Shown piece after piece: positions 1 to 31,700 of a DNA stretch of 64,000 bases; within the stretch, counting starts at the first letter, position 1, and each line of letters starts with the position of its first letter. The notes under the pieces were generated by a model. That model did not search any database and was not told where the DNA came from. It saw only the letters and a list, made by a program, of their open reading frames with translations. Both the position numbers and the translations under genes were made by a program. This DNA is from Candidatus Omnitrophota bacterium (GTDB taxonomy: Bacteria; Omnitrophota; Omnitrophia; Omnitrophales; Aquincolibacteriaceae): contig JAKLFP010000001.1 of NCBI GenBank assembly GCA_022711115.1, forward strand, positions 5,183 through 69,182, written 5' to 3'.

Positions 1-1716
1 AAGGTATTCGCCTGTGATGGAAGGAGCATATTTTTTAAGCTCCTCAACGCTGCCTTGAAACACAAGATCCCCCCCTTTGGCACCGCCCCGCGGCCCGAGA
101 TCGATCACGCCATCCGCAGACTGGATCATGGTCCGGTCATGTTCCACCACCACAACTGTGTTCCCGAGATCGCGAAGTTTTTTCAAAAGGTCAATCAACA
201 TCTGATTATCGCGTTCATGAAGGCCGATGCTAGGCTCATCCAACACATAAAGTGTATCCACAAGCGCTGAGCCGAGAGAACTTGCCAAGTGGATCCTCTC
301 GACTTCCCCGCCCGACAGTGTCCGTGACATCCGGTCCAGCGTCAGGTAACCGAGCCCGACGTCCTTCAGAAACCGCACACGGCTCAAAAGTTCTTTATGA
401 ACCGGTTCAATTTTTTCTTTTTCTTCAGCACGGAATTCGAGCGACTCCAGAAAGAGCAAAAGTTCTTCAATGCTCAAAGCTTGGACCTCGGCAATATTTT
501 TTCCACCAAGCAGGAAATGGAGTCCTTCAGGCTTGAGCCGTGTCGCATGACAAACATGACACGGCACATACCCGCGGTAACGGTTCAAAAAAATCCGGAC
601 ATGCATTTTGTAAGTTTTCCGGTTCAGATAATCGAAAAAGGCTTGCACGCTAACAAAATCATCCCCGTCATACCCACGGAGGATCCATTTGCGATGCTGT
701 GGCTTTAATTTACCCCAAGGAATCCGTGTCGGAATACGCTTGCGCTCACAAAAATCTAAAAGTTGCCCTTGTTCCCAACGCGCACTCCCCTTGGTGAAGG
801 GTTCAATGGCGCCATCCCGAATCGATTTTGAAGGATCCGGAACCACAAGATCCCAATCAATCGTAATCACACGGCCAAACCCCTGACAGGTGGGGCACGC
901 GCCAAGCGGGCTATTGAAAGAAAAAAGATTTGGGGTTGGCTTCACAAAGGATCTCCCGCAAGAGAAGCAGCGCAACGCCCCTGAAAATTTTAGAATACGA
1001 CCGGCGATCCAGACTTCCCCTTCCCCGCGTCCCAGGCGAAAGGACTGTTCTAGAGAATCCGTAAGACGTTCTTTGTTGTTTTGTAAAATTTTCAAACGAT
1101 CCGCGCAAACTGAAAGTTCTTTAAAAACAACTTTTTTCCGTAGAAGAGTCTCCGCACACAGCCATTCCCCGCCATAAAAAAATTCGCTAAATCCTTGTCT
1201 CTCAAGCTCTTCGAAATTCTCCCGAACATATTTTTGACTTTTCTGGCTAAAAAGAACCGAGAAAACGATCCTTGCTTCTTGCCCTTGGAATTCGGAAAGT
1301 AATCGTTCTGCAGCTTTCGCTGGATCGTGTTCTTGGACCTCGATATGGCAATCAGGACATATCAAGCGGCCGGCACGTGCGAAAGCCACGCGCAGGTAAT
1401 CATTGATCTCGGTTTGAGTCCCGACAGTGGAGCGGGCATTGCTGATGGCATTTTTGGCCTGAATGGCCAGCGCTGGCGGAATACCTGCTGCGGAAGTAAT
1501 ATCGGGTTTCGGCATACGCTCCAGAAATTGGCGGGCATAAGCGGAAACAGATTCAATATAGCGGCGTTGGCCTTCGGCATAAAGTGTGTCAAAGGCCAGA
1601 GAGGATTTTCCGGAACCGGAAACACCCGTCACGACATAAAATTTTCGGTGCGGAAGAACCAGATCAAAGTTCTTTAGATTGTGGGTCTTGATCCCACGTA
1701 GCAGAATCGCATCCAA
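1..1716 (-). CDS. uvrA: excinuclease ABC subunit A (UvrA), N-terminal ~570 aa; gene continues beyond the window start
   Basis: Manual translation of the reverse strand gives LDAILLRGIKTHNLKNFDLVLPHRKFYVVTGVSGSGKSSLAFDTLYAEGQRRYIESVSAYARQFL... with Walker A, a zinc-finger CPDC...CxxC region, the ABC signature LSGGE and VLDEPSIGLH. The frame stays open to position 1. The probable TTG start at 1716 lies 6 nt after the stop of the upstream gene. It is absent from the ORF track only because the gene has no stop inside the window. Confidence 0.85.
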   Translation of the reverse strand, partial: MDAILLRGIKTHNLKNFDLVLPHRKFYVVTGVSGSGKSSLAFDTLYAEGQRRYIESVSAYARQFLERMPKPDITSAAGIPPALAIQAKNAISNARSTVGTQTEINDYLRVAFARAGRLICPDCHIEVQEHDPAKAAERLLSEFQGQEARIVFSVLFSQKSQKYVRENFEELERQGFSEFFYGGEWLCAETLLRKKVVFKELSVCADRLKILQNNKERLTDSLEQSFRLGRGEGEVWIAGRILKFSGALRCFSCGRSFVKPTPNLFSFNSPLGACPTCQGFGRVITIDWDLVVPDPSKSIRDGAIEPFTKGSARWEQGQLLDFCERKRIPTRIPWGKLKPQHRKWILRGYDGDDFVSVQAFFDYLNRKTYKMHVRIFLNRYRGYVPCHVCHATRLKPEGLHFLLGGKNIAEVQALSIEELLLFLESLEFRAEEKEKIEPVHKELLSRVRFLKDVGLGYLTLDRMSRTLSGGEVERIHLASSLGSALVDTLYVLDEPSIGLHERDNQMLIDLLKKLRDLGNTVVVVEHDRTMIQSADGVIDLGPRGGAKGGDLVFQGSVEELKKYAPSITGEYL

Positions 1717-1722
1717 GGGAGA

Positions 1723-2118
1723 TCAGCTTTTGACCTCGCGACTCAAAGCCTCCCCGATCACTTTAAGAAGTTGCTGCCCTCCGTAAACATGCTGGGTGTC
1801 TGGAAGGATATTGACCGAGGTTGTTCCAATATCAACACGTTTCACAATAAAAGAGATGCTCCGAAGATCAGAATCGTCAAGCCGGCTATAATTGACGTTA
1901 CGAACACTGATGATTCCTTTTTCCTTGTCCGTCGCATCAAGCTGCCAGTCTGCCTGAGAATTCAAAGCTTCGAGTGTTTTCAAGTAGGTCTGATCATATG
2001 CGAGTTTATAGGTCAGAACTTGGTCATTGGGCGGCATGACCTTTCCCACCGAGTTGCAACCGAACAAACCCGAAACAAGAATTAAAACAAGCATTACCTT
2101 TAAGATTTGGTTCATCAT
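1723..2118 (-). CDS. small lipoprotein (signal peptide + lipobox LFGC), unknown function
   Basis: 131-aa ORF. N-terminus MMNQILKVMLVLILVSGLFGC has a hydrophobic core plus a Cys lipobox. It sits 9 nt downstream of the giant OMP gene and 6 nt upstream of uvrA. Confidence 0.6.
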   Translation of the reverse strand: MMNQILKVMLVLILVSGLFGCNSVGKVMPPNDQVLTYKLAYDQTYLKTLEALNSQADWQLDATDKEKGIISVRNVNYSRLDDSDLRSISFIVKRVDIGTTSVNILPDTQHVYGGQQLLKVIGEALSREVKS

Positions 2119-2127
2119 ATTTTCTCC

Positions 2128-5100
2128 TTAAAATTTACCTGTCATGCGTATAAAGGGTCCATGACTTTGAGAATTATTTGCATTTCTGAGGTCATCGTTA
2201 AAGTCCGTGAAATTATACCCTAATCCGAGCCGAACGTATTCATAAAATTCACGATCAATTTCTACCAACGCGCCGTGTTTGAGGTTGTCCGCCGAGGACG
2301 TTTGGAAAAGAATTCGGTATTCTATGGCCAGATCCCATTTTCGGGTGACATGAAAGTTGATGCGATTGGCGGACAAAAAGGTATTCACCCCAAGCATGTC
2401 TCCGACGGAAGTGCTCACCGACGATCGTTTAAAAGCCAGTTTTTCTACCAAACCGAAATAACGATTCAGGTCATAAGCGACGTCCATCGCAAAAATATGC
2501 GCGGCCTGATCAAATTGAAAGCCGTCATAATAGGAATTATCATATTGGGCATCACTCCCCAAATCCTGCAAATAGGTATAGCGTGCCAGCATATTCAGTT
2601 TATCAAGTTTGACCGGCCGTATCGCGAACCCGCTCGTCAATTCCACAAATGTCGCCGGACTATTATCCGGATTGTATTGCATCGTATCTCCTAAATTGAA
2701 TCTTGTCAGAAAAGCCACGTCTTCATTAATCTGATATTGCAAAGAGTTTTGCGTCACAAGCTGACTCATTTTGGGAAGAGTCTGATCCGCCCGAATTTCC
2801 ACGTAGCTCCGGGCCCGGAACTTCTTCCCAAGGGCATAAGCCACATTGCCACCAACTGTATTAAAGGTATTGGCGCGTGCCAGCGCGTTCTGGGCGGCAT
2901 CATTGATCAACTGCATATTCGCGTTATTCAAGTGGCGACGTTCAAATTTGCCGCCATAATCCCAATGATCGCCCGCCTTTCCTTCGTAACCTAAAATATC
3001 CGAAAAACCATCCTGATTCTGATAACTCGAATATTGCCGTTCGGAATAGAAACGGGAGTGTTCGCTCAGTGAGAAAGAGTTGCCGATCGCTGTGGAAAGG
3101 GTTTTATCTCCGATCCCGCGATCAAAGGAACGAATATTCGCGTAACTACGAACACCGTTCCCGTGTTGACGCTCAAACCCGAAATTGGTCGAATCCCCAA
3201 GCGGCCCGAACATTTGCTCCAAATAAGCAAACAGATTGTTGATGATTTCATACCGCACACCGCCGCCGAACTGTTGATCCGCCTTGCCGTCCAACACAGT
3301 CTGAACTTTCACATAAGGCAGCAGGCGGTCGTTGATATGGTAACCGACCTTGCCGGTCACACCGTTTTTGAAAGGAAGCTGATTGTCCATGGTAGGGGTG
3401 ATATTGCTGATGCTTGTCACAGGGTCGAGATTCCGCCGCTGGTATTCAATCTCTCCGAGATACTTGCCGTCATCGTAAACGATCTGGGCTGTGTGTGTTC
3501 TCATGTTTTGATAAGGCGCGGAATTATTGGTCACATTCAGCGGTTCCAGTTGACTGACCACACCCCCATCGTCAAAACGGTAACGGATTGCCAAACTATC
3601 GGTGAATTTATATTTGCTTGCAAGCCCGTATTTTTTTAGACCTTCCTGGCTTCGCATATTGTTATTAGAAAAACCGGGGTCCAGTTCCTGCACATAACCG
3701 GTCATCTCAAGATTTTTCACAGGCTTGGACTGAGCCTTGATCAGATACGCCTCGCTGAGATCTTTGGTGTGTCGACCATGCAGAGGACTGAGATTCGCAT
3801 AACTGATCCCGCCATCGTAAGAGACTGAATTGCTAAGCTGCTGATTGATCGATTGTGCGTATTCTGCTGTTATTTTGGTATTGCGGCCGAATTTAAGCGT
3901 GGCATCGACACCCCGCAAATTATAATCATCATTCCCGGGCCGGCTTTCATTGACCGCGGTAGCACCTATCTTGATATGGTCGCCCATATCCGTATAACCT
4001 CGAATACCTTGGTTCGTACTCGAATCCAGGCTAGGCCCCGGATCGTATTCATAATCCACGATCAAATAGACAGGATTGCCATTCAGCATGTCGGCAGTGG
4101 TCATCGTATCCGTCGCAGACACGGAAGAAAGAGGCCGGGTAAGAAGAATACGACCTTCTTCATAATTGATTTCATAATCCGCCCCAGGCTGCAGATCATA
4201 ACTGGAAATCGCCATGTTCTGGATCTTGTCGCGGATCTCCACACGGACTTTTTCACTGCCTTCGATCATATTGCGATTACGCGTGTAAAAAAGTGTTCCC
4301 CCTGTGGCATAAAGTTCATTATGGTCTGCCTGACGATCGGATTTGGCCGAAAAGACCTTGAAACCCCGCTTGGGATCCCCGTAGATATTCGTCCCAACCG
4401 TTTCATAATTGACCTTGAGACCGGAAAGTGTCCGGCTGTAAGTAGTAAGCTCGGTATCATTGAATTCGGTTTTATAACTTCCCCATTGAGCGTACGAACG
4501 GTCCATTTCTACAAGCAAGAAAAGCCGTTGTGCCGTGTCCCGAGCCTCATAGTCACGCGTGGAACCATCTCCGTAAATCGGGTAATATTTGTTCGGATCA
4601 AGGCTCGTGAAAAAATTACTGCGGTTGTCCGCAGTATCATAATGCGCCTTCACAAGAAATTTTCCCTTCAGCTTGCCTTTCAGGAAAAAGGCCATTCGCC
4701 CGTCCTGGCGGAACCCATTCCGGTAGACATCCGAATCCGCGGTCTCCATGGCCCCTTTTGCAAAATTCTCGCCAAATTGCTGCTCGCCCAACGCGACCAT
4801 GAAGAACGTGCTGTCCTTCACTTTGATTTTCTTATGAAAGGATGTCGTTTCTCCGGAAGGCGTGATCGCCGTAATTTTCGCTTCATATTCCCCAGGCTCC
4901 ACAAAAAATTCTTTCTGAAACATGCCATTTTCCGGATCAACCGTCACCGGGGTGTCATTGATTTTGATCACATTGTTGGGCTGGGTTTTCCCCTGAACCC
5001 GCACCACGGGCTTGGCAACGAGCGGGATGCTCTGTTTGCCGTCTTTAAAAATATTGAAATCGCCGACCGGCGGGATCTCGGGGTGATAATTCTTTTCCGC

Positions 5101-6873
5101 TCTTGCATCCAACTTTGAATATACCTCAAAAAATTTCAAGGGCGTCCAATCTTCACGGTTTTTGGAATCACGCACCTTGAGTTGGTAGGAATAAATCCCA
5201 GGAGGAATCAAAAGTCCGGCCTCAGTCATTCCCGACCAAACGACTTCCGAAGGCGGTTGCCCGACGCCATAACCGATCCACATTGGTTTTCCGAATTCAT
5301 CACGAATTTCAAGAGCCCATTTCTTGATGAATCTTCCATAATTATTATTAAAAGTGAACACCGGATCTTTTTCCAAAACACCAATGCCCAGCTTCACCAC
5401 AGAAGGCTCCATCTGAACATCCAGCGTCGGGCGGGAGACATCGACCCCTTGCGTCACCATGACCATCAGATCTTTTTTGAAGTTCTCAGGAATACCGGAC
5501 GGCGGCAAGAGTACCGCAAAATTCGCTTTATTCATAATTCCCGGCGTGGTTTTTACAAGATAGGCTTCTTCCGTAACGAATTTTGTACCTTCCGGCAGGC
5601 TGTGCCCGTCGATTTTAATCACATGCCGTCCCGGCGTGACCCCGGGAATATGATAACGCCCATGTTCATCCGTCACGATTCCAATCCCTTCTTCTGTGTA
5701 CAGTCTGACCCAAGGGACACCATCTTCACCGCAATCCTGAACGCTGTTCTGATTGAGGTCATTAAAGACCTTGCCGATGACCGTCCCTTGTTCAAATACA
5801 GGATCCCCTTCGACAGAAAATTGAGTCGTCACTTTTTGTGATAATTTTCCAGGTGTCAAAACATTATCAATGGTCCCTGCGTAATCCGCTTGGACAGAAA
5901 CGCCGTCCACGCTTGATTCCAACGCATACGTCCTACCCAGTTGTACGCCGCTTGAAACCAGCATCACAAAACTAACATGGATCTCTTGATTGGGAACCAT
6001 ATTCCCGACATCCACAACCAGAAAGCCATCGCGATAACCCGCAGGGAGTCCGTTCACTCTGACCGACTGATCCGCATAGTCAAAACCTTGCGGGATTTTA
6101 AACTTCATTTGAGTATTTTGATAAGTATTGCCTGACGCATTTTTAAAACGCGCGTTAATCCCCACAGCATCGCCCGGGGCAACATTTTTTTTCGAAGCAG
6201 ACACTGAAAGTCCTACCGGATTGATGCCGCCGATGGCTTGAGTGACGATTAAGTATCGATTTGCAACGGCCGCACCGGCACTCTTCCGTGTCTTAATCGT
6301 AAAAACAACCCGGTTTGTTTCCTCCGGCGCCGTACCGGCGATTGAAAAAGCCTGATAACCACCCCCCGGAGGCGCTTGGGCCGAGCGAATCGAAAAACCA
6401 TTATCCGACAAATTGATGGGACTGCCGATCAGCTGATCTGTGCCATCTTCATTTTTATGTTTGAATTCAATCGCAATATCACCTCTTCCGGATCCTTGAA
6501 TATTCGTTTCCGCGTAAACCGTAAATGTCACATAATCGCCTGGTTTCACATTGTCATAGGTCTGAAATGTAAAACGATCTGTTCCCGCAGCCGCATCAGG
6601 CAGTTGTAAAGCAGAGCCGTTCGGAAGTGTCGAAAAGGTCCCCGGCGGATTAGGTGCTGTCGTAATCCTTGTTGCCCCGTTGGTATTGTCCCAATTCGCC
6701 GCAGTACCGTTACCAATAGATTGGCTAAAATCGCCATTGCCAAGGACATTGGCATAAGCAAAAGGGGTGTTAGAGGTAAAAAGGAAAACAAGAAAGAGCG
6801 CAAGCGATAAGAAAATACGCGCTGCTTTGTTTTTTTCTTTTTTAGCTCCCCACATCATAGCTAACAATTTCAC
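2128..6873 (-). CDS. giant outer-membrane-type protein (1581 aa): N-terminal signal peptide, extracellular beta-sandwich/DUF11-like and SdrD-B/CarboxypepD_reg-like modules, C-terminal ~700-aa putative beta-barrel ending in Phe
   Basis: Single uninterrupted ORF. Signal peptide ...FLVFLFTSNTPFAYA/NV. Internal segment VIGKVFNDLNQNSVQDCGEDGVPWVRLYTEEGIGIVTDEHGRYHIPGV resembles a Cna-B/SdrD-B fold. The C-terminal half is rich in alternating aromatic/Gly/Asn/Tyr beta-strand patterns and ends ...FIRMTGKF (OMP-type terminal Phe). Confidence 0.7.
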   Translation of the reverse strand: MKLLAMMWGAKKEKNKAARIFLSLALFLVFLFTSNTPFAYANVLGNGDFSQSIGNGTAANWDNTNGATRITTAPNPPGTFSTLPNGSALQLPDAAAGTDRFTFQTYDNVKPGDYVTFTVYAETNIQGSGRGDIAIEFKHKNEDGTDQLIGSPINLSDNGFSIRSAQAPPGGGYQAFSIAGTAPEETNRVVFTIKTRKSAGAAVANRYLIVTQAIGGINPVGLSVSASKKNVAPGDAVGINARFKNASGNTYQNTQMKFKIPQGFDYADQSVRVNGLPAGYRDGFLVVDVGNMVPNQEIHVSFVMLVSSGVQLGRTYALESSVDGVSVQADYAGTIDNVLTPGKLSQKVTTQFSVEGDPVFEQGTVIGKVFNDLNQNSVQDCGEDGVPWVRLYTEEGIGIVTDEHGRYHIPGVTPGRHVIKIDGHSLPEGTKFVTEEAYLVKTTPGIMNKANFAVLLPPSGIPENFKKDLMVMVTQGVDVSRPTLDVQMEPSVVKLGIGVLEKDPVFTFNNNYGRFIKKWALEIRDEFGKPMWIGYGVGQPPSEVVWSGMTEAGLLIPPGIYSYQLKVRDSKNREDWTPLKFFEVYSKLDARAEKNYHPEIPPVGDFNIFKDGKQSIPLVAKPVVRVQGKTQPNNVIKINDTPVTVDPENGMFQKEFFVEPGEYEAKITAITPSGETTSFHKKIKVKDSTFFMVALGEQQFGENFAKGAMETADSDVYRNGFRQDGRMAFFLKGKLKGKFLVKAHYDTADNRSNFFTSLDPNKYYPIYGDGSTRDYEARDTAQRLFLLVEMDRSYAQWGSYKTEFNDTELTTYSRTLSGLKVNYETVGTNIYGDPKRGFKVFSAKSDRQADHNELYATGGTLFYTRNRNMIEGSEKVRVEIRDKIQNMAISSYDLQPGADYEINYEEGRILLTRPLSSVSATDTMTTADMLNGNPVYLIVDYEYDPGPSLDSSTNQGIRGYTDMGDHIKIGATAVNESRPGNDDYNLRGVDATLKFGRNTKITAEYAQSINQQLSNSVSYDGGISYANLSPLHGRHTKDLSEAYLIKAQSKPVKNLEMTGYVQELDPGFSNNNMRSQEGLKKYGLASKYKFTDSLAIRYRFDDGGVVSQLEPLNVTNNSAPYQNMRTHTAQIVYDDGKYLGEIEYQRRNLDPVTSISNITPTMDNQLPFKNGVTGKVGYHINDRLLPYVKVQTVLDGKADQQFGGGVRYEIINNLFAYLEQMFGPLGDSTNFGFERQHGNGVRSYANIRSFDRGIGDKTLSTAIGNSFSLSEHSRFYSERQYSSYQNQDGFSDILGYEGKAGDHWDYGGKFERRHLNNANMQLINDAAQNALARANTFNTVGGNVAYALGKKFRARSYVEIRADQTLPKMSQLVTQNSLQYQINEDVAFLTRFNLGDTMQYNPDNSPATFVELTSGFAIRPVKLDKLNMLARYTYLQDLGSDAQYDNSYYDGFQFDQAAHIFAMDVAYDLNRYFGLVEKLAFKRSSVSTSVGDMLGVNTFLSANRINFHVTRKWDLAIEYRILFQTSSADNLKHGALVEIDREFYEYVRLGLGYNFTDFNDDLRNANNSQSHGPFIRMTGKF

Positions 6874-6879
6874 CTCTTT

Positions 6880-8445
6880 TTAAGAACGATTGCTGGAAAT
6901 GTTAATTCCGAAACGGAGGTCATAATTCGGCGGTTTTGGATTCGGGTCACCATCCTGTTTGACCCGCTGGGCTCTTCCGATGCCGACCCACTCCGCAAAA
7001 ACCTTGGTCTTGAAAAGCCACTGATTATCCTTCCAGCGGTAGCACCTGAACGGCATCCAACGGATTCCCGGTGCTAAAAAGTATTGGTTCTGGTACCAGA
7101 AGGAAAATTCGCTGTTATTGGTGGCATCAAAACGAAGGTAAGGCATAAGAGCAAATTCATCATTGATGGGATTGTCAGGCAAAGGGATACCGGGCAATTT
7201 GATACCAACCATGACCGAGGAATTGGCAATGAGCGCATTAAAACTTTTTTCCGGACCGAAATTAGTTTTATCCACATAGTAATTCCCGTAATACTCCCCC
7301 CATACATACTGGCGAAGATAATCCGTAAATTTCTCGGGACGTCCCTCCACCAACGTCGGAAGTTCGATGCCCCATTCATAAAAAATATCAACACCCCAGA
7401 TAAGATCATAATCCTTGCTGCCCTGGATATCATTTTTGATGTTGTAGCGGTTACCGTACATAATGTAAGTGCGATAGCTGCGTATCCAATCGAGGATCGG
7501 AATACCGCCAAACGGGCGATAATTCTGGAGCCAAACATTACGGCGCAAGGGATACCATTCAAGACCGGCAAAAAGTTTTAAATTATTGCTGTAGGGAGTG
7601 GAGGTAGAATCCAGATTGATCGTGCTTTCCAAAAATGGATCGATCGTGTTCAGAGGAAAGCGGATCCCTTTGAATACAATGCGGTTCGTCCAGTATCCCA
7701 CTTGACTATCGTATTGATTTTCAGAAAGATTGGTGTTCCGCCAACTCGTTTCTCCGAAAGATTGCCAGAGGATCGGTTCTCCCGCGGGAGTCCCTTGGAA
7801 CGGTCCCCAGAGTTTTTCGCCGATATCCATCTGATCGGTAAATTTAAGGATGAGTTCTTCTTCTTTTTTGAACTGTGCCGGCGTTTTGATTTCGACCGGC
7901 GGCTCGGGTTCAACGGGGACATAGACCGGAGCTTCACGGACGAACTTTTCAAAATCACCGCCTTTTGCTTGAACCGATTTTTTCATGGAAGCAATTTCGG
8001 CTGTGGCTTCTCCCGTGGTCTTGTATGCCTTGTCCCCGATCCAATACAGCTCCGTCGTTTTACCGCTCGCGTCAGGAATAGGCAGCTGACGAATCTCAAC
8101 GCCCTCGTACGCGGCTGTTTTTAGATTTTTTTTGATGTATTGGTCGATCTCTTTGATGTCCTTCAAACCGGAAAGAAATCGGGATTTCAAGACCCCTCCG
8201 CCAAAGTCCGTTACAATGGAATATTCCGCTTTCTGTTGCCGGGACGGCGTCTTCAGGATGGAAAAACCGCGAACTTCGTTAATCTTATTGTCGAGTCTTT
8301 GATCGGACGGAGCAAAGAAGTATTCGGCGTAAGGGTTAGGAACGGGCGCTTCAGAAGAAATTCTTGCTTTTTCTTGAGCAAAGGCTGGGATGGCTATGGA
8401 TAGAAAGATGGCGATGAGAAAAATTAAATTTTTTTTAATTTTCAT
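6880..8445 (-). CDS. secreted/envelope protein (521 aa), signal peptide, Trp/Tyr-rich C-terminal half; unknown function
   Basis: ORF with signal peptide MKIKKNLIFLIAIFLSIAIPAFA/QE. Its stop lies 6 nt before the giant OMP start codon (tight coupling). The C-terminal region is W/Y/N rich with alternating hydrophobic residues. Confidence 0.55.
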   Translation of the reverse strand: MKIKKNLIFLIAIFLSIAIPAFAQEKARISSEAPVPNPYAEYFFAPSDQRLDNKINEVRGFSILKTPSRQQKAEYSIVTDFGGGVLKSRFLSGLKDIKEIDQYIKKNLKTAAYEGVEIRQLPIPDASGKTTELYWIGDKAYKTTGEATAEIASMKKSVQAKGGDFEKFVREAPVYVPVEPEPPVEIKTPAQFKKEEELILKFTDQMDIGEKLWGPFQGTPAGEPILWQSFGETSWRNTNLSENQYDSQVGYWTNRIVFKGIRFPLNTIDPFLESTINLDSTSTPYSNNLKLFAGLEWYPLRRNVWLQNYRPFGGIPILDWIRSYRTYIMYGNRYNIKNDIQGSKDYDLIWGVDIFYEWGIELPTLVEGRPEKFTDYLRQYVWGEYYGNYYVDKTNFGPEKSFNALIANSSVMVGIKLPGIPLPDNPINDEFALMPYLRFDATNNSEFSFWYQNQYFLAPGIRWMPFRCYRWKDNQWLFKTKVFAEWVGIGRAQRVKQDGDPNPKPPNYDLRFGINISSNRS

Positions 8446-8502: not shown

Positions 8503-9303
8503 CTATGCCATGTTTAATACTTGTTGCATATCATAAAGACCAGGCTTTTTTTTCGCAAGAAATTTTGCTGCTAAAAGAGCCCCGCGAGCAAAGGCTTCGC
8601 GCGAGGAAGCCCTGTGAATGAGCTCGACTCGTTCACCGTCGCCTAAAAACGAAATGGTGTGGTCCCCCACAACATCACCCCCGCGAAGCGCAAAGACACC
8701 GATCTTCCCTTTTTCTCGGGCACCGGTTTCACCGTTGCGCCCATAGACCACATCTTTCTTTGTACATCCTCTAACTTCGGCAAAAATCTCAAGAAGCTTT
8801 AAAGCCGTACCGCTGGGCGCATCTTTTTTCATCCGGTGATGGATCTCCGTAATTTCAAGGTCATAACTTTTATCCAGGATGGACCCGGCCAGTGCCGCTA
8901 ATTTAAAAAGCAGATTGACACCGATACTCATATTCGGAGATTGCAAAATCGGGATCTTTTTGGAAGCAGACTTGACCTGTTTGATCGTTACCGGAGGAAT
9001 TCCCGTGGCACCGATCACATAGGCCGTGTGGGTTTGGACTGCTGCCTTTAAATTTTCAGGGATCGCCGAAAAATGGCTGAAATCGATCATAACGTCCGCC
9101 TGCGACAAAACGGCAACGGCATCCTGCGTTACTTTGACACCCATCAGGTCTTTACCGATAAGCGGACCTATGTCCTGTCCGAGCGCTGCATGGCCTCGTT
9201 GTTCGATGCCACCCACGATCTTGAAAGCTTTGTCCTGGCTGGCGAGCTGAAGAATGATTTTTCCCATCCGGCCCGCGGCACCGGCCATCACAAGTTTTAT
9301 CAT
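8503..9303 (-). CDS. dapB: 4-hydroxy-tetrahydrodipicolinate reductase
   Basis: MIKLVMAGAAGRMGK... (NAD(P)-binding GxxGxxG) and EITEIHHRMKKDAPSGTAL motif. Start trimmed from the track ORF (9369) to the ATG at 9303, which overlaps the dapA stop (ATGA). Confidence 0.85.
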   Translation of the reverse strand: MIKLVMAGAAGRMGKIILQLASQDKAFKIVGGIEQRGHAALGQDIGPLIGKDLMGVKVTQDAVAVLSQADVMIDFSHFSAIPENLKAAVQTHTAYVIGATGIPPVTIKQVKSASKKIPILQSPNMSIGVNLLFKLAALAGSILDKSYDLEITEIHHRMKKDAPSGTALKLLEIFAEVRGCTKKDVVYGRNGETGAREKGKIGVFALRGGDVVGDHTISFLGDGERVELIHRASSREAFARGALLAAKFLAKKKPGLYDMQQVLNMA

Positions 9304-10184
9304 TTCACAACCCCTATTTTTTTCAAAACTTCCGCCAGTTTTCTCTCGTTCTCCGGCTTCATTTCGCAAAGCGGCAAGCGAATTTCCGGATGGATCATGC
9401 CCATCATCCCGAGAGCTGTTTTTACAGGGATCGGATTCGTTTCGATAAATGCAACTTTGGAAAGCGGATAAAGTTTTTTATGAAGAAGTCTGGCTTCGTT
9501 CATATCCCCGTGCAATGCCGCCGTCACCATATTCTTGACCAGCCTGGGAATGATATTCGCCGTCACCGAAATCACCCCTCGCGCACCGATTGCCAACAGC
9601 GGGTAGGTAAGGCTGTCCTCCCCGGAGAGAATCGGCAGGTCACAAAGTTGGGCGATCTGATCCGCCTGATCCATACTTCCGCTCGCTTCTTTGATCGCAA
9701 CAATATTATCAATTTTGGAGAGACGCGCTACGGTCTCAGGTGCGATTGAAACTCCCGTTCGGCCTGGCACATTGTAAAGCACCATGGGAATATCCACCCG
9801 TGAGGCAAGATACTGGTAATGCCGGTAAAGACCTTCCTGTGTCGGCTTGTTGTAGTAAGGCGTTACCACAAGCACTCCGTCCGCTGAGATTTTTTTGGCA
9901 TGCTGGACAAGGCCAAGAGCTTCCGTGGTATTGTTGGAACCGCAACCACAGATCACCGGGATGCGATGGTGGATATATTCCACCACAAAGGACATCACGC
10001 CGCGATGTTCTTCATGCGACATCGTGGCAGACTCTCCCGTTGTCCCGCACGGCACGATCACGTCCGTTCCTTCCTTAAGATGAAAATCTAAAAGACCTTT
10101 AAGTGCTTTTTCGTCCACTTTGCCGTTACGAAACGGTGTGACCAACGCAACCATGGACCCTTCAAATAAAACTTTCTTTTTCAT
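9300..10184 (-). CDS. dapA: 4-hydroxy-tetrahydrodipicolinate synthase
   Basis: 294 aa. TPF...CGTTGES and the AIKEASG (Schiff-base Lys) motifs typical of DapA. Confidence 0.9.
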   Translation of the reverse strand: MKKKVLFEGSMVALVTPFRNGKVDEKALKGLLDFHLKEGTDVIVPCGTTGESATMSHEEHRGVMSFVVEYIHHRIPVICGCGSNNTTEALGLVQHAKKISADGVLVVTPYYNKPTQEGLYRHYQYLASRVDIPMVLYNVPGRTGVSIAPETVARLSKIDNIVAIKEASGSMDQADQIAQLCDLPILSGEDSLTYPLLAIGARGVISVTANIIPRLVKNMVTAALHGDMNEARLLHKKLYPLSKVAFIETNPIPVKTALGMMGMIHPEIRLPLCEMKPENERKLAEVLKKIGVVK

Positions 10185-15578: not shown

Positions 15579-16958
15579 CTAGGACAGCTTTTTTCCCCAC
15601 TTTGCAATTTCTTTTTTTACACGTACAGGGTGTGTGCTGCCAATTGTTTTCTTACCCCATACGGAATCCTTGAGATCAAATAGCTCATGGATATCTGCCC
15701 CGAATTTGGGGGAGAATTTTTTCCATTCTTGAATGGATAATTCGCGTAATTTTTTACCGGATTCGGCCGCATACCGGACAACCTTGCCTACCATTTGATG
15801 CGCTTCGCTAAAAGCAAGTTTTTTTCGCACGAGATATTCCAGAATATCCGTCGCAAAAAGGCTGTCATCTTCAACAGCTCTCGCAATGGCTCTTTTATGC
15901 CAACTCACGGAACTGATGGCCAGCGACAAAATTTCAAGCGCGGTGGTTGTCTTTTTGATCGAATCAAAAACGCCGGGCTTGTCTTCCTGAAGATCCCGGT
16001 TATAGGAAAGCGGCAAGCCCTTCTGGATCGTGAGCATGGCTTGGAGGTACCCGAAGATCACCCCGGACCGGCCTCGCACCAGTTCAAAAACATCCGGATT
16101 TTTCTTTTGCGGCATCAGACTGGAACCTGTGGCAAACGCGTCGTCCAATTCCATAAAACCGAAAGCTTCGGAATTCCAGAGAATAAAATCCTCGGCAAGC
16201 CGGGAAAGATGCATCCAAAGAATAGATACCACACCTAAAAATTCAGCAAGAAATCCACGGTCGCTCACTGCTGCCATACTGTTTTCTGCAATCTTGGTAA
16301 ATCCGAGTTCCTTTGCGAGAAATTTCTGATCGAGCGGTAATGCCGAACCCGCGAGCGCCGCGGAGCCGAGCGGCAGTACATTGACCCTCTTCATCGAATC
16401 CGCCAACCGCGCGTTGTCCTCATCCAACATTTCGACATACGCCAGCAAATGATGCGCGAGAAGAACAGGCTGGGCCCTTCTCAGATGTGTCATCCCCGGA
16501 ATAATGATTTCCCCTGCTTTTTCAGCAGTGATCACAAGGGCCTTTTGGAGCTTCTTGACCATAAACCAGATCACTGCGACTTTGTCCCGGAGATAAAGCC
16601 TTGTGGAAGTCACGACAAGATCGTTACGGCTGCGACCCGTATGGATTTTTTTGGCCACAGCACCTGCTTTTTTTTCGAGTTCCATTTGAATAAGCGTGTG
16701 GATATCTTCATACTGATCAGCGTACGCTGCAAGATCCCGGCCTGTTAAAATTTGGCCCACCGACTTGAGACCGCGCAAGATGGTCTTGGATTCCGCAACC
16801 GTGATGAGACCCATCCTTGCTAGCATTTTCGCATAGGCTTCATTGACACGGATCTCCGCATCAAAAAGCTCTTTGTCTGTCTCCAGTGAATAGCTGAAAC
16901 ATTTAAGCGCCGGATGCATTTCCTTTTTGAATCTGCCACCCCACAGTTTTTTACTCAT
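15579..16958 (-). CDS. argH: argininosuccinate lyase
   Basis: MSKKLWGGRF... start, fumarate-lyase signature GSSLMPQKKNPD. Start trimmed ~10 codons from the track ORF. Confidence 0.9.
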   Translation of the reverse strand: MSKKLWGGRFKKEMHPALKCFSYSLETDKELFDAEIRVNEAYAKMLARMGLITVAESKTILRGLKSVGQILTGRDLAAYADQYEDIHTLIQMELEKKAGAVAKKIHTGRSRNDLVVTSTRLYLRDKVAVIWFMVKKLQKALVITAEKAGEIIIPGMTHLRRAQPVLLAHHLLAYVEMLDEDNARLADSMKRVNVLPLGSAALAGSALPLDQKFLAKELGFTKIAENSMAAVSDRGFLAEFLGVVSILWMHLSRLAEDFILWNSEAFGFMELDDAFATGSSLMPQKKNPDVFELVRGRSGVIFGYLQAMLTIQKGLPLSYNRDLQEDKPGVFDSIKKTTTALEILSLAISSVSWHKRAIARAVEDDSLFATDILEYLVRKKLAFSEAHQMVGKVVRYAAESGKKLRELSIQEWKKFSPKFGADIHELFDLKDSVWGKKTIGSTHPVRVKKEIAKWGKKLS

Positions 16959-17036
16959 ATTCATCACCATTTTCCATGCCGCGCACAACGTGCAAAGCTC
17001 AACAAATTAATTTTACGTCGGGCGTTCACTGTTATA

Positions 17037-18221
17037 TTATTTTTCCCCCATGCCTTCGTAAGGAAGTCCCCAGATTTTCATAAAACCGACAGAAGCCTTC
17101 CTGTCAAAAACATCCCCTTTGGAATAGGTTGCAAGTTTTTCCTTATAAAGCGCGTACTTGGATTGGCGCCCAACACAAACCGCATGGCCGTGGTCCAATT
17201 TGATCCGGACCTTGCCCGTGACTCGTTTCTGGTTCGATTTGAAAAATTCATCGAGAGCTGATTTTAACGGCGAGAACCAGAGACCAAAATAAACCAGCTC
17301 GGCATATTTTTCAGAAAGTAATCTCTTATAATGGAGAAACTCCCTGTCCATCACAAACCCTTCGAGCTCTTCATGCGCCTTGAGCAACACTTCGGCGGCC
17401 GGGGCTTCATAGATCTCCCGGCTCTTGATTCCGATAAGCCGGTTCTCGATCATGTCAAAACGCCCGACACCGTACTGACCGGCGACGGCATTCAAATACT
17501 CGATCATCTCGACGAGATCTTTTTCAACACCATTTACTTTCACGGGAACACCTTTATCAAATTCAATTATGAGATATTTCGGTTTCTTCGGGGCCTTTGC
17601 CGCGGCACGCGTCATCACATAGGCCTCTTCCGGCGGTTCGACCATCGCATCCTCAAGGATTCCGGCTTCGATGGCAATCCCCCAAATATTCTTGTCAATG
17701 GAATAAGGGCTCGCCTTGGTTACTTCAATCGGGATATTGCGCTCTTTGGCGTATTCGATCTCCTCTTCGCGTGTCTTGAATTCCCAATCTCGGAGCGGGG
17801 CGATGATCTTGAGTTTCGGATCCAGAGTCCTGACACCGACTTCGATCCGGACCTGATCATTCCCTTTTCCCGTACAGCCGTGCGCTACAAATTCAGCGCC
17901 TTCTTTTTGCGCCACTCTGACAAGGTGTTTTGCAATAAGCGGACGGCCCAGCGCGGTCGCAAGCGGGTATTTGCCTTCATACCTGGCATGCGCCCACAAC
18001 GCTGGCATAATGAAATCCTTCGCAAATTCTCTTTTGAGATCTTCAATGTAAGATTTAACTGCCCCCGCGGCTTGGGCTTTTTGGATCAGTTTGCCTTTGT
18101 CCTTCACCTCTCCGATGAAAGCGGAAAAACAAACCACATCCAATCCATGATTTTCGCTAAGCCATTTCACCGCACAAGAGGTATCCAAACCTCCAGAATA
18201 TGCCAACACTACTTTTTTCAT
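17037..18221 (-). CDS. argG: argininosuccinate synthase
   Basis: MKKVVLAYSGGLDTS (PP-loop). 394 aa. Confidence 0.9.
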   Translation of the reverse strand: MKKVVLAYSGGLDTSCAVKWLSENHGLDVVCFSAFIGEVKDKGKLIQKAQAAGAVKSYIEDLKREFAKDFIMPALWAHARYEGKYPLATALGRPLIAKHLVRVAQKEGAEFVAHGCTGKGNDQVRIEVGVRTLDPKLKIIAPLRDWEFKTREEEIEYAKERNIPIEVTKASPYSIDKNIWGIAIEAGILEDAMVEPPEEAYVMTRAAAKAPKKPKYLIIEFDKGVPVKVNGVEKDLVEMIEYLNAVAGQYGVGRFDMIENRLIGIKSREIYEAPAAEVLLKAHEELEGFVMDREFLHYKRLLSEKYAELVYFGLWFSPLKSALDEFFKSNQKRVTGKVRIKLDHGHAVCVGRQSKYALYKEKLATYSKGDVFDRKASVGFMKIWGLPYEGMGEK

Positions 18222-19147
18222 TGAATCGCTCCTTGATTGAGAAGATGTAAAAGAATTGCTTTCTGGATATGAAGACGGTTTTCAGCTTCGTCAAATACGA
18301 TCGCACATTTGCTTTCCATCACATCGTTCGTAATCTCTTCGCCCCGGTGCGCCGGCAAACAATGCATGATCAAAGCGCCTTTTTTTGCTTTGGCGATCAG
18401 CGCCTTATTGACCTGCATCCCCTTGAAGTCCTTAAGCTTTTTCTTGCGAATATCCTCTTCTCCCATGCTGACCCAAACATCCGTATAGATGGCATCCGCA
18501 CCCTCGACAGCCTTACCCGGATCCAAAAACTTTTCAATCGAGGCACCTGTTTTTTTAGCAAGCTCTTGAGCCGTCTTCAAAATCTTTGGGTTGGGTTGAT
18601 ATTTTTTCGGTGTCGCATAGCGGATCTTGGCACCAAGCTTTGCGGCAACAAGCATCAGAGAATGCAACACATTGTTGCCGTCTCCCACAAACGCGAGAAC
18701 TGGATCCTGATCGGCAGGTATTTTCTCATAAAGCGTCATATAGTCCGCAAGAGCCTGGCAAGGATGTTCCTTATCGCTCAAGCCATTAATCACTGGTTTC
18801 TCAAAATAATCCTGAAATTCGGTGATGGTCCAGTGCGAGAAAGTCCGCATGACGACGCCTGAAAGATAACGGTTGAGCACACGCGCCACATCCCGGACTT
18901 CTTCGCGAACACCCAGTTTGATATCTTCGGGACCAAGGTAGATCACCCCGCCCCCCATCGAAAAAATCCCCGCCTGAAAAGAGACCCACGTCCGTGTCGA
19001 TGGTTTCTCAAAAATAAAACCGAACATCCGGCCTTCGAGAACATTACGGAAATCCTGCGGCCGCTTTTTTACATCGGCCGCAATTTCCAGAAGTTTCCGG
19101 ATCTCTTCCGTGCTGAGATCGTTAATTGAAATCAATGACTGAAACAT
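18218..19147 (-). CDS. argF: ornithine carbamoyltransferase
   Basis: STRTWVSF (carbamoyl-phosphate site), HCLPAHRGEE. A 4-nt overlap with the argG start. Confidence 0.9.
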   Translation of the reverse strand: MFQSLISINDLSTEEIRKLLEIAADVKKRPQDFRNVLEGRMFGFIFEKPSTRTWVSFQAGIFSMGGGVIYLGPEDIKLGVREEVRDVARVLNRYLSGVVMRTFSHWTITEFQDYFEKPVINGLSDKEHPCQALADYMTLYEKIPADQDPVLAFVGDGNNVLHSLMLVAAKLGAKIRYATPKKYQPNPKILKTAQELAKKTGASIEKFLDPGKAVEGADAIYTDVWVSMGEEDIRKKKLKDFKGMQVNKALIAKAKKGALIMHCLPAHRGEEITNDVMESKCAIVFDEAENRLHIQKAILLHLLNQGAIQ

Positions 19148-28751: not shown

Positions 28752-31700
28752 TTATTCCAACGGCACATAATACAATCCGCGTGTGTTCACGATCATGCGG
28801 CCCACCGTAGCGCTGGGATCATCCACCACCAAAATAATCGCCTTGATCTGGGTCGCGTCAAATCCAGCAATCCCCACACTCTGCAGCACGGCGTTAGAGA
28901 TCGCGATCCTTCCGTTCGTCAGATTGACTCGCACCGTCACCTTCCGTCCATTAGCGTCTTCCACCTCAACCTTGTAATACCTCGCACCCGTCACATTCAC
29001 ATCCAACACTATTGGCGCTGCCGCCGCGTTGAAATAGGCTCCCGGGGAAAATAACATCATCGCTGCAGCCCAACGCTGATTCCCCCCGGCCGCTAAATTA
29101 AAATCCATCACAAATTGATTCGCTGACGGCTGCACGAAACTCGCCACCGTCGTATGCGCCACGGCCTCAATCGGAGAAACGCTCGGCTGCAACGCAATGA
29201 AATCCGTCAGCGGCGCTGTTGTTGTCCAGGAAATCACGGGAATATACGGATACCCTCCCAACCGGACTTGCAACTGCCCTGTTTTTAAACTGATATTGTT
29301 ATTCTCGACAACGAAATTTACATTTTTGACATGTGCCAAATCCACCCCGGTTAAAGCGTTGATCGGTATACGGTAAAATTGCTCCGTTATTCCAACGTTC
29401 AACAGGTAAATCATAGCGCGACCGCCGTTGGCGTCTTCAACCTGGAACTTGATCCGACCGGTCCCTGCCGAAAGTTTCAACCCTACGACAATCGAGGAGA
29501 TACTTCGTAAATCTGCTGCCTCAACCGCCGGGGTCCCAAAATCATCAAAACTCGACAGCAAAAGAGACCAACTTCCCGCGGTTGTCACATTATATTGCAG
29601 CGCTGACACCGATGAAGAACTCTGAAACACACTGGACTGCCCGGCTCCTCCCCCCTCGATAGCAGTTACACTTCGAATTCCTGGAAGCGTGCTGATATTG
29701 CTAATGCCCAGTGTCGGATCTGTTGTTACGGTTGGTTCGTAATACAACCCACGGGTATTGACCGTCAGTGTCCCCGTTGTCGCGCTTGGATCATCCACCA
29801 CCAAAATAATCGCCTTGATCTGGGTCGCGTCAAATCCAGCAATCCCCACACTCTGCAGCACGGCGTTAGAGATCGCGATCCTTCCGTTCGTCAGATTGAC
29901 TCGCACCGTCACCTTCCGTCCATTAGCGTCTTCCACCTCAACCTTGTAATACCTCGCACCCGTCACATTCACATCCAACACTATTGGCGCTGCCGCCGCG
30001 TTGAAATAGGCTCCCGGGGAAAATAACAGCATCCCCGCCGCCCATCGCTGTGACCCTCCGTTCGTCAGGTTGTAATTCAGCGAAAATTGACTGCTGCTTG
30101 ACTGTGTCAAACTCGTGACCGTATTGGCCGGACTCGGCTCGATCTCGGACACCGATGGCCGCAACCCGCTGAAATCCGTCAGTGGTGCTGTCGTCGGAGG
30201 AACCAATGGAACATAAGCTAGCCCCTTGGTCTCTACCGCCACCTGACCGCTTGCCCCCATGTGCGCACGATCCGCGACAAATAAAATTTGAGCCACTCTC
30301 GTCGCATCAATCCCCATGCCCGCGAAATTAAGAGCGTAATTCTGAGTCGTCCCGCTCAGGTTTAAATAATAGACCGCCACCCGCCCGGTCGTGTCTTTCA
30401 CCTCGACCTTCAACTGCTTCCCCGCAGGACCGTTCGCCGCCAGCACTAGCCCCGAACTCAAATTCATCGCCGTACCAATCCAAACATTGTTATTGAAATA
30501 ACCGTTCCCCGCAGAGCTAAACACAAAATCGTCCGAGTCCGCTAACGTGTAATTCATCGCGAAATTGCGAGACGAGGTCTGCGTGACCGCAATCGTCCCG
30601 TTCGCAGTCGCCGTCCCCACCGCCCCTGACCCGCTGCTTAAAACCGGAACGTTCGGAAGCTGTGTAATCAGGCTCTGATTGTAAACCGAACCGTTCACAA
30701 CTGGCGTATACGGATACTTTCCAAACCGGACTTCTAAAGCTCCTATCTTGTTCGTCACTTTGTGGGTTTCTAAAATAAAGTTGATATTCTTTACATGCGA
30801 GAAATCAAAAGACGTAAATAGCGTGCGCAACGCACCGATCGGAATCTGGACAAATTTCTCCGTCGTGGTGATATCGGTGGCTATCACCTTCGCCCGGTGC
30901 CCGCTCGCGTCTTCAAACTCTACATAAACCGATCCGCTTCCACTTGCGAAGCGTAATCCCGCTATCAAGGTTGTTGCCGTGCTTAGATCATAACTCTCAA
31001 CCCCCGCGGTCCCGAAATTATCAAAGGATGAAATGCTCCCCGCATAACTTCCCGCCTGACTCAGGTTATAATTCAACCGGAACCGGTCGGCGTCGTACTG
31101 TACCAAATTCGCAGCCCCGGCCGGATTGGAAAATACCGTCAAACTCGGGAAAGAGTAACTCGACGGAACCGCAGTCCCCGGAACCCCTATGATCACCGGA
31201 ATGTAATACATCCCGTTCACTTCCACGTTCACCTGGCCCGTGGCCTGCATATGACTTCGATCGGCAATAAACGCGACCTGAGCCACTCTCGTCGCATCAA
31301 TCCCAAGCCCTGTCAGATTGATCGTGTAATTTTGCTTCGTTCCGTTCAAAGCCAAATACACCACCGCTTGCTGGCCGTTCACGTCTTTGATCTCCACTTT
31401 AAGCTGCTGGCCCAAAGCGCCTTGGGCCGCCAAAGTCAAACCAGCACTCAAATTCACGGTCTGGCCATTGAAATGCGTGTCATCGGTAAAATAGCCATTA
31501 CTTAAATATGCGAACACAAAATCGTCCGCGTCCGCCAAGTTATAGTTAAAGCTGAAATCTCGCGGCGAGGTCTGCGTGAGCGTGATCGTCCCATTCGCTA
31601 TCCCGTCCACGGACCCGCTCCCGGAATTCAAAATCGGCTGATTCGCAAGTTGCGTGATCAGCGAGGGATTGTAGGTCGTACCCGAAATGCTCAAAAAAAG

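Follow-up and report, generated by a model that had tools for sequence, protein, structure and literature searches.

A predicted outer-membrane barrel of about 40 strands in Omnitrophota, its two partner genes, and their conserved place next to uvrA

Why are three genes for envelope proteins packed tightly against uvrA, a gene of nucleotide-excision repair, and what kind of protein is the giant one among them? The question is raised by a stretch of 64,000 nucleotides from a Candidatus Omnitrophota bacterium (GenBank assembly GCA_022711115.1, contig JAKLFP010000001.1, positions 5,183 to 69,182), which is called the window here and to which all positions without a locus number refer. The original prediction, which was based on the sequence without any database search, had described four open reading frames (ORFs) on one strand with gaps of 6, 9, and 6 nucleotides and had regarded the first three as envelope proteins. 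The positions match exactly. All four genes are on the minus strand in the order A, B, C, and uvrA. Gene A (8445..6880, 521 amino acids, ATG start) encodes, as judged from the ORF, its homologues, and a structure prediction, a secreted outer-membrane protein of an orphan family found in Omnitrophota only. Gene B (6873..2128, 1581 amino acids, GTG start) encodes a giant outer-membrane protein, as indicated by the ORF and its orthologues, and gene C (2118..1723, 131 amino acids, ATG start, with the Shine-Dalgarno sequence GGAG) a lipoprotein. The N-terminal 572 codons of uvrA follow (1..1716, TTG start at 1716), and the gene runs past the start of the window. The envelope nature of the trio is borne out by Sec signal peptides on A and B and by a lipobox on C. 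More than 115 full-length orthologues of B (1530-1720 amino acids, 38-77% identity), more than 240 homologues of A, and 41 homologues of C were found. All named homologues of A belong to Omnitrophota, and every named homologue of A, B, or C comes from metagenome-assembled genomes (MAGs) of Candidatus Omnitrophota/Omnitrophica.

The C-terminal module of B (residues 690-1581; 2131..4806, minus strand) is an all-next-neighbour antiparallel meander of about 40 strands, on which the structure prediction, the residue couplings, and the lengths of the connections agree. The AlphaFold2 (AF2) model of B, which covers residues 690-1581 only, was computed from an alignment with 67 homologues and has a mean predicted local distance difference test (pLDDT) value of 75 and a predicted template-modelling score (pTM) of 0.74 for its 892 residues. 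It is nearly all beta, with 43 DSSP strands that average 11 residues and one small inserted beta domain. In a mean-field direct-coupling analysis (DCA) of 324 non-identical barrel sequences (effective number of sequences, Meff, 270) the top partners of nearly every strand are its neighbours in sequence, with values of 0.6-1.7 vs a background of 0.26 +/- 0.09. The exceptions are strand 7, which pairs with strand 10, and strand 13, which pairs with strand 15. Strands 8 and 9 together with the inserted domain are therefore an excursion, and strand 14 is not in the wall; removing these three DSSP strands on the basis of DCA and loop/turn parity leaves 40 wall strands. The odd connections between the 40 wall strands have a median length of 13.5 residues and the even ones of 4 residues (Mann-Whitney p = 1.8e-4), and this parity stays in register across the entire module. 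The even turns do not vary in length among 105 orthologues, and their conservation (0.68) exceeds that of the odd loops (0.51). Classical outer-membrane barrels have long extracellular loops and short periplasmic turns. At its C-terminal end (...IRMTGKF) B carries an aromatic beta-signal. The very large barrel ending in Phe that the original prediction had placed in the last ~700 residues is thus of the expected type and has the expected last residue but measures ~890 residues, and the strand count suggested there as a check gives, in the model, a meander of 43 DSSP and 40 wall strands.

That the meander forms one barrel of about 40 strands is well supported, and its closure is the part that we infer. 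In DCA the closure is only weakly visible, with strand 1 and strand 40 at the 93.5th percentile and strand 1 and DSSP strand 41 at the 98.5th percentile. In addition, the mean pLDDT is just 75, and there is a disordered stretch at model residues 549-600. It could be argued that the region is not one closed barrel at all and instead consists of two tandem barrels or of an open beta-sheet or solenoid, or that the model is an AF2 artefact. The weak closure contact would fit this, as would model residues 549-600, which have a pLDDT under 50 and lie where many distant matches break into two stretches, and multi-barrel chains exist (PMC8346858). However, DCA contains no closing signal for a split into two barrels (strand 1 with strand 25 at the 29th and strand 26 with strand 43 at the 78th percentile), the pairing of neighbours is continuous and the parity in register over 40 strands, and the pTM of 0.74 extends over all 892 residues. 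The same paper also has single barrels of 38 and 40 strands that are backed by contact maps, in a superfamily that is probably the same as, or related to, the family of B. We regard anything other than a single closed barrel as improbable.

To our knowledge, the largest barrel solved so far is that of SprA with 36 strands, and the barrel of B is predicted to be larger than any solved so far. Foldseek aligned the B barrel with probability 1.0 but with low template-modelling (TM) scores to the largest solved outer-membrane barrels in the PDB. The best match is SlpA of Deinococcus (30 strands, E 3e-8, TM 0.24), and the other matches comprise SprA (36 strands), BtuB, MtrB, LptD (26 strands), and FimD. 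As far as the model can tell, these matches reflect a generic likeness among giant barrels and no close relative, and a PDB sequence search with B returned nothing usable. The resemblance to giant outer-membrane and S-layer-anchoring proteins that had been proposed from the sequence is therefore right in so far as SlpA is the best match but is generic only, given the TM-score of 0.24. Like B, SlpA (8ae1/8agd/7zgx) and OmpM of diderm Firmicutes have an N-terminal non-membrane region in front of a very large C-terminal barrel, and a tethering role might be common to all of them. However, SlpA is a trimer with an SLH domain, a coiled coil, and 30 strands, in contrast to the Ig (immunoglobulin-like) modules, the tip resembling a carbohydrate-binding module (CBM), and the ~40 strands of B, and the two proteins do not share sequence similarity. 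A superfamily of large barrels with 38 and 40 strands has been predicted by Solan, Pereira, Lupas, Kolodny, and Ben-Tal (PNAS 2021, PMC8346858). According to that paper, its members are, like B, single barrels of ~40 strands derived from sequence and contact maps, beyond any solved barrel and functionally uncharacterised. With 40 wall strands B falls into the range of this superfamily (38-40 strands in a single barrel), and the B module and the superfamily are probably the same or related. The main text, as searched, mentions neither DUF11 nor Omnitrophica or Planctomycetes, and partner genes and passenger domains were not found discussed in it.

Barrel loop 4 contains the small beta domain (residues 857-934, EGSEKVRVEIRD...DYEINYEEGRILL; 4072..4305, minus strand), which is seen by DSSP and DCA and occupies model positions 168-245 with a pLDDT of 75-83. 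It holds the motifs that are most conserved superfamily-wide, present as invariant columns in the superfamily alignments, and by parity it falls on the extracellular-loop side. The ushers FimD and PapC (Foldseek matches 9fxb_D, 9fxs_D, and 3rfz_B) also have a small beta-sandwich between barrel strands, a candidate plug. They have, however, 24 strands and a plug that faces the periplasm, whereas the insert of B is on extracellular-loop parity. B does not match any Usher family, and there are no chaperone or pilin genes nearby. A position of the insert as a plug within the lumen, as it might be read from DCA contacts with many distant strands, is not claimed: in a hand count of the top-80 DCA pairs, the enrichment (~28% observed vs ~20% expected) is unconvincing.

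In front of the barrel, B consists of a Sec signal peptide and a row of beta-sandwich modules. The signal peptide (residues 1-41; 6751..6873, minus strand, as all features of B) was read from the sequence and ends in ...PFAYA ahead of NVLGNG, and the conserved block of the B orthologues opens at the motif ANxLGN (n=15 aligned). The first module is a CBM_4_9-like beta-jelly-roll tip (residues 42-215; 6229..6750). The family PF02018 is matched by the N-termini of five of the 15 orthologues (best E 1.1e-6), and the copy in the window reaches E 0.33. The tip is variable, with a mean identity to the query of 0.37 and a standard deviation (s.d.) in length of 26 amino acids among 105 orthologues, and it is duplicated in some of them, two tandem copies being present in the B orthologues at L003:8001-9380 and L041:4309-5388. 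A DUF11/CLIPPER-like Ig module follows (residues 220-345; 5839..6216) with weak matches to PF01345 (eight of 15 orthologues) and TIGR01451 (E 0.006) and a conservation of 0.36. Next comes an SdrD_B module of the Cna-B type with a DxNxN..QDxGE loop (residues 361-457; 5503..5793). Its PF17210 match at residues 368-434 (E 1.4e-5, 25.7 bits) is under the Pfam gathering cut-off of 29.7, and SdrD_B is among the precomputed Pfam domains of most B orthologues. This module is the most conserved part of B (0.80), with ~50 positions that are at least 90% invariant in the 105 orthologues. An isopeptide-forming Lys-Asn pair in SdrD_B was considered and rejected, since Asn451, the candidate partner of the invariant K368, falls short of 90% conservation. 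Two more Ig-like modules (residues ~480-690; 4804..5436) are represented by a weak FlgD_ig match at residues 520-568 and by the alignment of the region with the Ig/Glucodextran_B region of the distant relative P0118, and have a conservation of 0.64-0.66. The last Ig module meets barrel strand 1 without a linker. In total, the Pfam matches in the N-terminal half of B are CBM_4_9 and beta-sandwich/Ig-type families, so that the Cna-B-like modules of the original prediction were recovered as SdrD_B and other Ig-type matches. Along the protein, the conservation thus runs from 0.37 in the tip and 0.36 in the DUF11 module over 0.80 in SdrD_B and 0.64-0.66 in the Ig modules to 0.63 in the barrel strands. 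The predicted extracellular loops vary less than the tip (0.36-0.37), and the SdrD_B and Ig modules are conserved like the periplasmic turns. An SLH domain was not matched by Pfam or NCBIfam in B or the 15 orthologue N-termini, and neither SLH, OmpA, or LysM nor other known wall-binding domains were found by these databases in the Omnitrophota orthologues.

The barrel module has no Pfam family and is found far beyond Omnitrophota. A phmmer search with the 892-residue module gave 2,747 representative clusters at E<=1e-3, 966 of them at E<=1e-30. Among the 255 sequences covering the whole module, the barrel is at the extreme C-terminus in 215, and 94% of these terminate in F, Y, or W (129, 64, and 10 sequences, respectively). 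The N-terminal extensions range from 0 to 6,725 amino acids and contain CLIPPER/DUF11, DUF7507, DUF7619, DUF7927, SdrD_B, CARDB, and beta-propeller modules. In the distant relatives P0118 and P0120, an OmpA peptidoglycan-binding domain is located N-terminal to the barrel. A scan of the GTDB species representatives confirmed at least 583 loci, almost all in MAGs, from Planctomycetota/Brocadiia, Omnitrophota, Desulfobacterota, Nitrospirota, Nitrospinota, Acidobacteriota, Auribacterota, and several gammaproteobacterial orders. CLIPPER-type Ig families are the stalk modules of extracellular fibrillar adhesins according to a survey from 2025 (PMC12617251), in which Por_secre_tail, CHU_C, and LPXTG are listed as anchors of these adhesins and a fused giant barrel is not. 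Like B, type Va autotransporters and the CLIPPER/SdrD_B adhesins of that survey have a signal peptide, N-terminal Ig modules of the adhesin type, and at the C-terminus a barrel whose last residue is aromatic. Type Va barrels, however, have 12 strands, an alpha-helical linker, and the family PF03797, whereas B has ~40 strands, does not match PF03797, and has no helix before strand 1. In the literature searched, we found no paper naming a 40-stranded outer-membrane protein, and two papers on Omnitrophota genomics (PMC10066038; 10.64898/2026.06.07.730766) do not mention B. The S-layer protein Kustd1514 of Kuenenia (1,576 amino acids) was considered as a relative for its size and the matches in Planctomycetota. 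It is an unlikely one and was discarded, as it evolves rapidly and has only six distant homologues in nr (PMC7709395) and its diagnostic peptide is missing from all fetched sequences.

The neighbours of the barrel gene differ between branches of the family. In Omnitrophota paralogues and in members from Planctomycetia and Auribacterota, the next gene encodes a TPR protein of ~1,100 amino acids instead of A or C. The TPR protein is gene +1 at L014, L025, L028, L030, L033, L038, L046, L062, and L077, and at L008 both a TPR protein and a TamB-like gene are found beside the barrel gene. In Nitrospirota, Acidobacteriota, and Gammaproteobacteria the barrel gene is followed by genes for a FecR/Glucodextran_B-Ig protein, a Cache-HAMP histidine kinase, and often a CHASE2-GGDEF protein, which indicates a signalling-linked subfamily. 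This set is located downstream at L007, L040, L051, L053, L064, L071, L074, L082, L086, and L088.

The original prediction had found no recognisable family for A and C, and indeed there is no Pfam, NCBIfam, or PDB sequence family for either; A is, however, not featureless, because its C-terminal 290 residues are predicted to form a 12-strand barrel. Protein A would start with a signal peptide (residues 1-23, ...PAFA before QEK; 8377..8445, minus strand), as suggested by the basic start, the hydrophobic core, and the AxA motif. The AF2 model of A (mean pLDDT 82.5) consists of an N-terminal alpha/beta domain (residues 35-175; 7921..8343, minus strand; pLDDT >90 over residues 40-170), a helical linker, and a barrel of 12 long DSSP strands (residues 226-517; 6895..7770, minus strand). 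Foldseek matches the barrel in the PDB to the autotransporter beta-domains of BrkA, Hbp, and EspP, to Tsx and PcoB, and to COG4313 channels (probability 1.0, TM to target 0.38-0.54). Given this 12-strand barrel, A itself is predicted to be an outer-membrane protein. The fold of the barrel resembles autotransporter beta-domains, but A does not match PF03797 and its N-terminal domain has just 140 residues. None of the 61 members scanned has a Pfam family, a PDB profile search gave no sequence relative, and the N-terminal domain has no sequence match in the PDB or Pfam. The family consensus of A ends in ...RRF and the A of the window in S. Protein C has the lipobox L-F-G-C with Cys21, the common form being [LF]-x-G-C, and the Cys is at least 90% conserved in 34 homologues. 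A Pfam family was not found in the 34 members scanned, nor a sequence relative in the PDB.

To see where the trio is placed in other genomes, local hidden Markov model searches were run on the loci L001-L005 (collected via B homologues), on GTDB species-representative genomes, and on 70 metagenome loci (collected via A). The original prediction had proposed looking for the cassette in related genomes, and the order dapB-A-B-(C)-uvrA is kept in essentially every Omnitrophota locus looked at (~57), with C sometimes missing. In the metagenome set, dapB is upstream in 58 of 58 assessable loci and uvrA within 1.5 kb downstream in 40 of 41, and in each of the 15 earlier loci whose flank is long enough, uvrA comes after B or C. 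A adjoins B wherever this is visible (16 + 52 loci). The median spacing is 4 nt between A and B, 29 nt between B and C, and 40 nt between C and uvrA (range 6-410 nt). L127 (~15618-18856) is the sole orthologous locus in which ~3.2 kb separate C from uvrA. About one fifth of the loci lack C, with 33 of 40 metagenome loci and ~13 of 19 others carrying it in the B-uvrA interval, and both A and C are found only beside the Omnitrophota core orthologue of B. From these neighbourhoods we conclude that A and B are likely to be the functional core and C a frequent accessory. A divergent pair of an A-like gene (490 amino acids) and a B-like gene (1835 amino acids) is found at L041:2687-9816 in the MAG of an uncultured bacterium, where dapB and uvrA are absent. 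The wider block is syntenic over at least 20 kb, with dapF and dapA upstream of dapB, and a small ORF, ftsH, and hrcA-grpE downstream of uvrA. Barrel family members in other phyla do not adjoin uvrA. At L072:2091-9794, in a proteobacterial MAG, a B-like gene is located ~2 kb upstream of a uvrA, which probably is a chance adjacency.

The phylum-wide adjacency could be explained by a functional tie of uvrA to the envelope trio, for instance if repair were coupled to envelope stress or DNA uptake. The persistence of uvrA behind B or C just described is what this explanation would predict, and in the window the 6-nt junction, the TTG start, and the lack of a Shine-Dalgarno sequence imply translational coupling. 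However, the entire block from dapF-dapA-dapB to ftsH and hrcA-grpE is just as syntenic, no spacing in the cassette is looser than that between C and uvrA, which reaches 410 nt and at one locus contains a 3.2-kb insertion, and the A-B pair at L041 does without uvrA. Junctions of 10 nt or less make up 38% of the same-strand junctions in the window, and no mechanism is known that joins UvrA to outer-membrane proteins. A functional tie is very improbable. Because the gaps widen along the cassette, the whole flank is syntenic, and short gaps are common in the window, we conclude that the position of uvrA reflects phylum-wide synteny in a genome that is compact and rearranges slowly and is no evidence of a shared function. 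The view of the original prediction that the coupling of uvrA to outer-membrane genes is unusual is not supported, in the light of the phylum-wide housekeeping synteny and of 15 of 39 junctions measuring 10 nt or less. Co-transcription of uvrA and translational coupling to C are plausible in this genome but would carry no functional message.

A giant barrel accompanied by a small barrel and a small third protein recalls SprA with PorV and Plug (6h3j, 8gl6, 8gl8), where a giant barrel also needs a plug and small partners. One could imagine that B is a gated secretion channel for large or folded substrates such as the very long surface proteins of Omnitrophota, with A as shuttle or partner barrel and C as plug, analogous to the SprA-PorV-Plug complex of the type 9 system. 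The SprA complexes 8gl8, 8gl6, and 6h3j are among the top Foldseek matches, and Omnitrophota encode many giant secreted proteins (PMC10066038; 10.64898/2026.06.07.730766). The trio, however, spans the phylum, and these giant proteins occur in only some of its lineages. SprA is not a homologue of B (TM 0.17) and is not the C-terminal anchor of its own passenger, PorV is FadL-like with 14 strands compared to the 12 strands of A, and neither SprA nor PorV is related in sequence to the trio. There are no other type 9 genes nearby: B does not match type 9 families in Pfam or NCBIfam, and the neighbours in the locus are the dap genes, uvrA, and ftsH. In addition, the barrels of the wider family are fused to their own passengers and have varied neighbours (the TPR protein or the FecR/kinase/GGDEF set), and therefore a self-anchor fits better than a general channel. 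We give the secretion channel little credence. Another comparison is LptD-LptE, a large barrel with an N-terminal beta-rich domain and a small lipoprotein possibly in its lumen, as might be the case for B and C. LptD has 26 strands, however, compared to ~40 in B, and C is dispensable in some lineages; LptD/OstA and LptE are not matched by B or C in Pfam or NCBIfam.

The reading that we favour, and to which we give about an even chance as a whole package, is that A, B, and C build a lineage-specific outer-membrane assembly of Omnitrophota that is centred on B and displays the tip of B. B would be exported by Sec and inserted by the barrel-assembly machinery (BAM) via the C-terminal aromatic beta-signal. 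Its last ~890 residues would then close into one barrel of ~40 strands with both ends periplasmic and, by geometric estimate, a diameter of roughly 7 nm (lumen ~6-7 nm). A lumen this wide would have to be plugged or occluded, and the occluders are likely to be B's own, namely the loop-4 beta domain from the outside and the SdrD_B and Ig modules from the lumen or the periplasmic side; C or the N-terminal domain of A could add to the occlusion. The variable CBM-like/CLIPPER tip would be the functional end. It would most likely pass through the lumen to the cell surface and stand there as a short fibril that binds glycans, anchored by the giant barrel in an autotransporter-like logic. By analogy to PorV and Plug with SprA or to LptE with LptD, A with its 12-strand barrel and periplasmic domain and C may be accessory subunits for assembly, gating, or plugging. 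uvrA would simply be the next gene in the housekeeping block, probably co-transcribed and without a functional tie. Barrel closure, plugging, surface display, and a physical complex of A, B, and C are what we infer. Within this proposal, surface display through the lumen appears to be likelier than a periplasmic stalk, because the tip outvaries the extracellular loops, the modules are of adhesin types, and the passengers of the relatives reach thousands of residues.

A different architecture results if all modules of B are periplasmic. The Ig modules would then be a stalk and the CBM-like tip would bind peptidoglycan or another wall glycan, so that the barrel, a tether or major structural component of the outer membrane, is fastened to the cell wall and perhaps serves as a porin as well, functionally like SlpA or OmpM. 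Strand 1 begins on the periplasmic side and is abutted by the last Ig module, an OmpA peptidoglycan-binding domain is located in the corresponding region of relatives, SlpA is the best PDB match, and the tip is similar to carbohydrate-binding modules. B is also a single-copy, phylum-wide gene that is located among housekeeping genes directly after dapF-dapA-dapB, which serve peptidoglycan precursor synthesis. All of this is in accordance with a tether. But the tip proposed to bind the wall is the least conserved and most length-variable part of B (0.37, s.d. 26 amino acids), whereas wall ligands are invariant; SLH, OmpA, LysM, or other known wall-binding domains are missing in the Omnitrophota orthologues; the TM-score to SlpA is just 0.24; and it is hard to imagine how adhesin-stalk passengers of up to 6,700 amino acids would fit into the periplasm. 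A tether is possible but, on balance, unlikely.

Several findings weigh against the surface-displayed assembly. Besides the faint closure signal and the limited model confidence given above, the direct junction of the last Ig module with strand 1 falls on the side that parity assigns to the periplasm, and B lacks an alpha-helical linker for the lumen such as classical autotransporters have. The OmpA domain in P0118 and P0120 would most simply be read as indicating periplasmic N-terminal modules. Only the adjacency of the genes suggests a physical complex of A, B, and C, and C is missing from ~15-30% of the orthologous loci. The adjacency to uvrA is kept down to 38% identity of B, which is more than usual for unrelated genes. 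The assembly centred on B nevertheless is the reading that we retain. A bolder version of it would comprise two claims, which we advance jointly and only as speculation that is rather doubtful: the module of ~890 residues might be a widespread giant-barrel autotransporter that exports the folded Ig-type modules of its own passenger of up to 6,700 amino acids, and the phylum-wide Omnitrophota version with its glycan-binding tip and the dedicated partners A and C might be the core attachment organelle of these ultra-small, host-dependent cells.

The gene boundaries and the surroundings of the cassette are in line with a compact genome region. The uvrA fragment matches NF001503 with E 7e-168 (model positions 4-595) and TIGR00630 with E 3.5e-165, and UvrA_DNA-bind and UvrA_inter (PF17755, PF17760) score above their cut-offs. 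The score for the full-length equivalog is under its cut-off because the gene is truncated by the window edge. The TTG start of uvrA is two codons past the stop codon of C, in the same frame as C and without a Shine-Dalgarno sequence, and its position is fixed because of the in-frame TGA of C two codons upstream. The GGAG in front of C is located 5 nt upstream of its start. For B, TTG 6867 and ATG 6858 are alternative starts behind a GAGGTG Shine-Dalgarno sequence at 6876-6871, and one of these may be the true start rather than GTG 6873. A consensus scan (9/12) found a promoter-like candidate site, TTGCGA-17-TATGAT (8530..8558, minus strand), inside the 3' end of dapB and upstream of A. Promoter-like sites in the window do not exceed shuffled sequences (18 vs 14.7 +/- 3.1 expected), and terminator-like sites were not found at any of the three junctions A-B, B-C, and C-uvrA. 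Because the counts do not exceed those of the shuffles, these scans are uninformative. In the window, 45 of 50 ORFs of at least 90 amino acids are on the minus strand, the coding density is ~94%, and same-strand neighbours are separated by a median of 30 nt, with 15 of 39 such gaps (38%) at 10 nt or less. The listed ORFs of dapB (8503-9369, minus strand) and dapA (9300-10184, minus strand) overlap by 70 nt, possibly because the TTG start listed for dapB lies too far upstream. Further repair genes in the window are a RecJ-like exonuclease (40020-41783, minus strand) and a fusion of a UvrD-type helicase and a PD-(D/E)XK nuclease with an AddA-like reading (56442-59786, minus strand); the repair genes are thus scattered and not clustered with the envelope genes. 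The window also encodes another large protein, of 1930 amino acids with a right-handed beta-helix (Beta_helix/NosD; 28752-34544, minus strand), which probably is secreted and does not have the giant-barrel module, and an AsmA/YhdP-like protein of 827 amino acids (24996-27479, minus strand), which may transport lipids to the outer membrane.

At the level of families, giant barrels with 38-40 strands had already been predicted in 2021. What is new is the fusion of such a barrel to adhesin-type passengers, its cross-phylum spread, the Omnitrophota trio with a partner barrel and a lipoprotein, and the phylum-wide synteny. The trio is a lineage-specific variant, with partner barrel and lipoprotein, of the predicted giant-barrel superfamily. 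We found no experimental study and no Pfam model of the barrel family. The adjacency to uvrA is in itself ordinary. A barrel of ~40 strands raises the questions of how it could be folded by BAM, what seals a lumen of ~6-7 nm, and what passes through it, and B is a housekeeping-like single-copy gene throughout an uncultivated phylum. With three proteins encoded in a locus of ~8.4 kb including the partial uvrA, the trio is a compact and highly conserved structural target. Omnitrophota have ultra-small cells and have been inferred to be largely host-dependent. If the variable CBM-like tip is indeed exposed on the surface, it would be a candidate host-attachment device of Omnitrophota.

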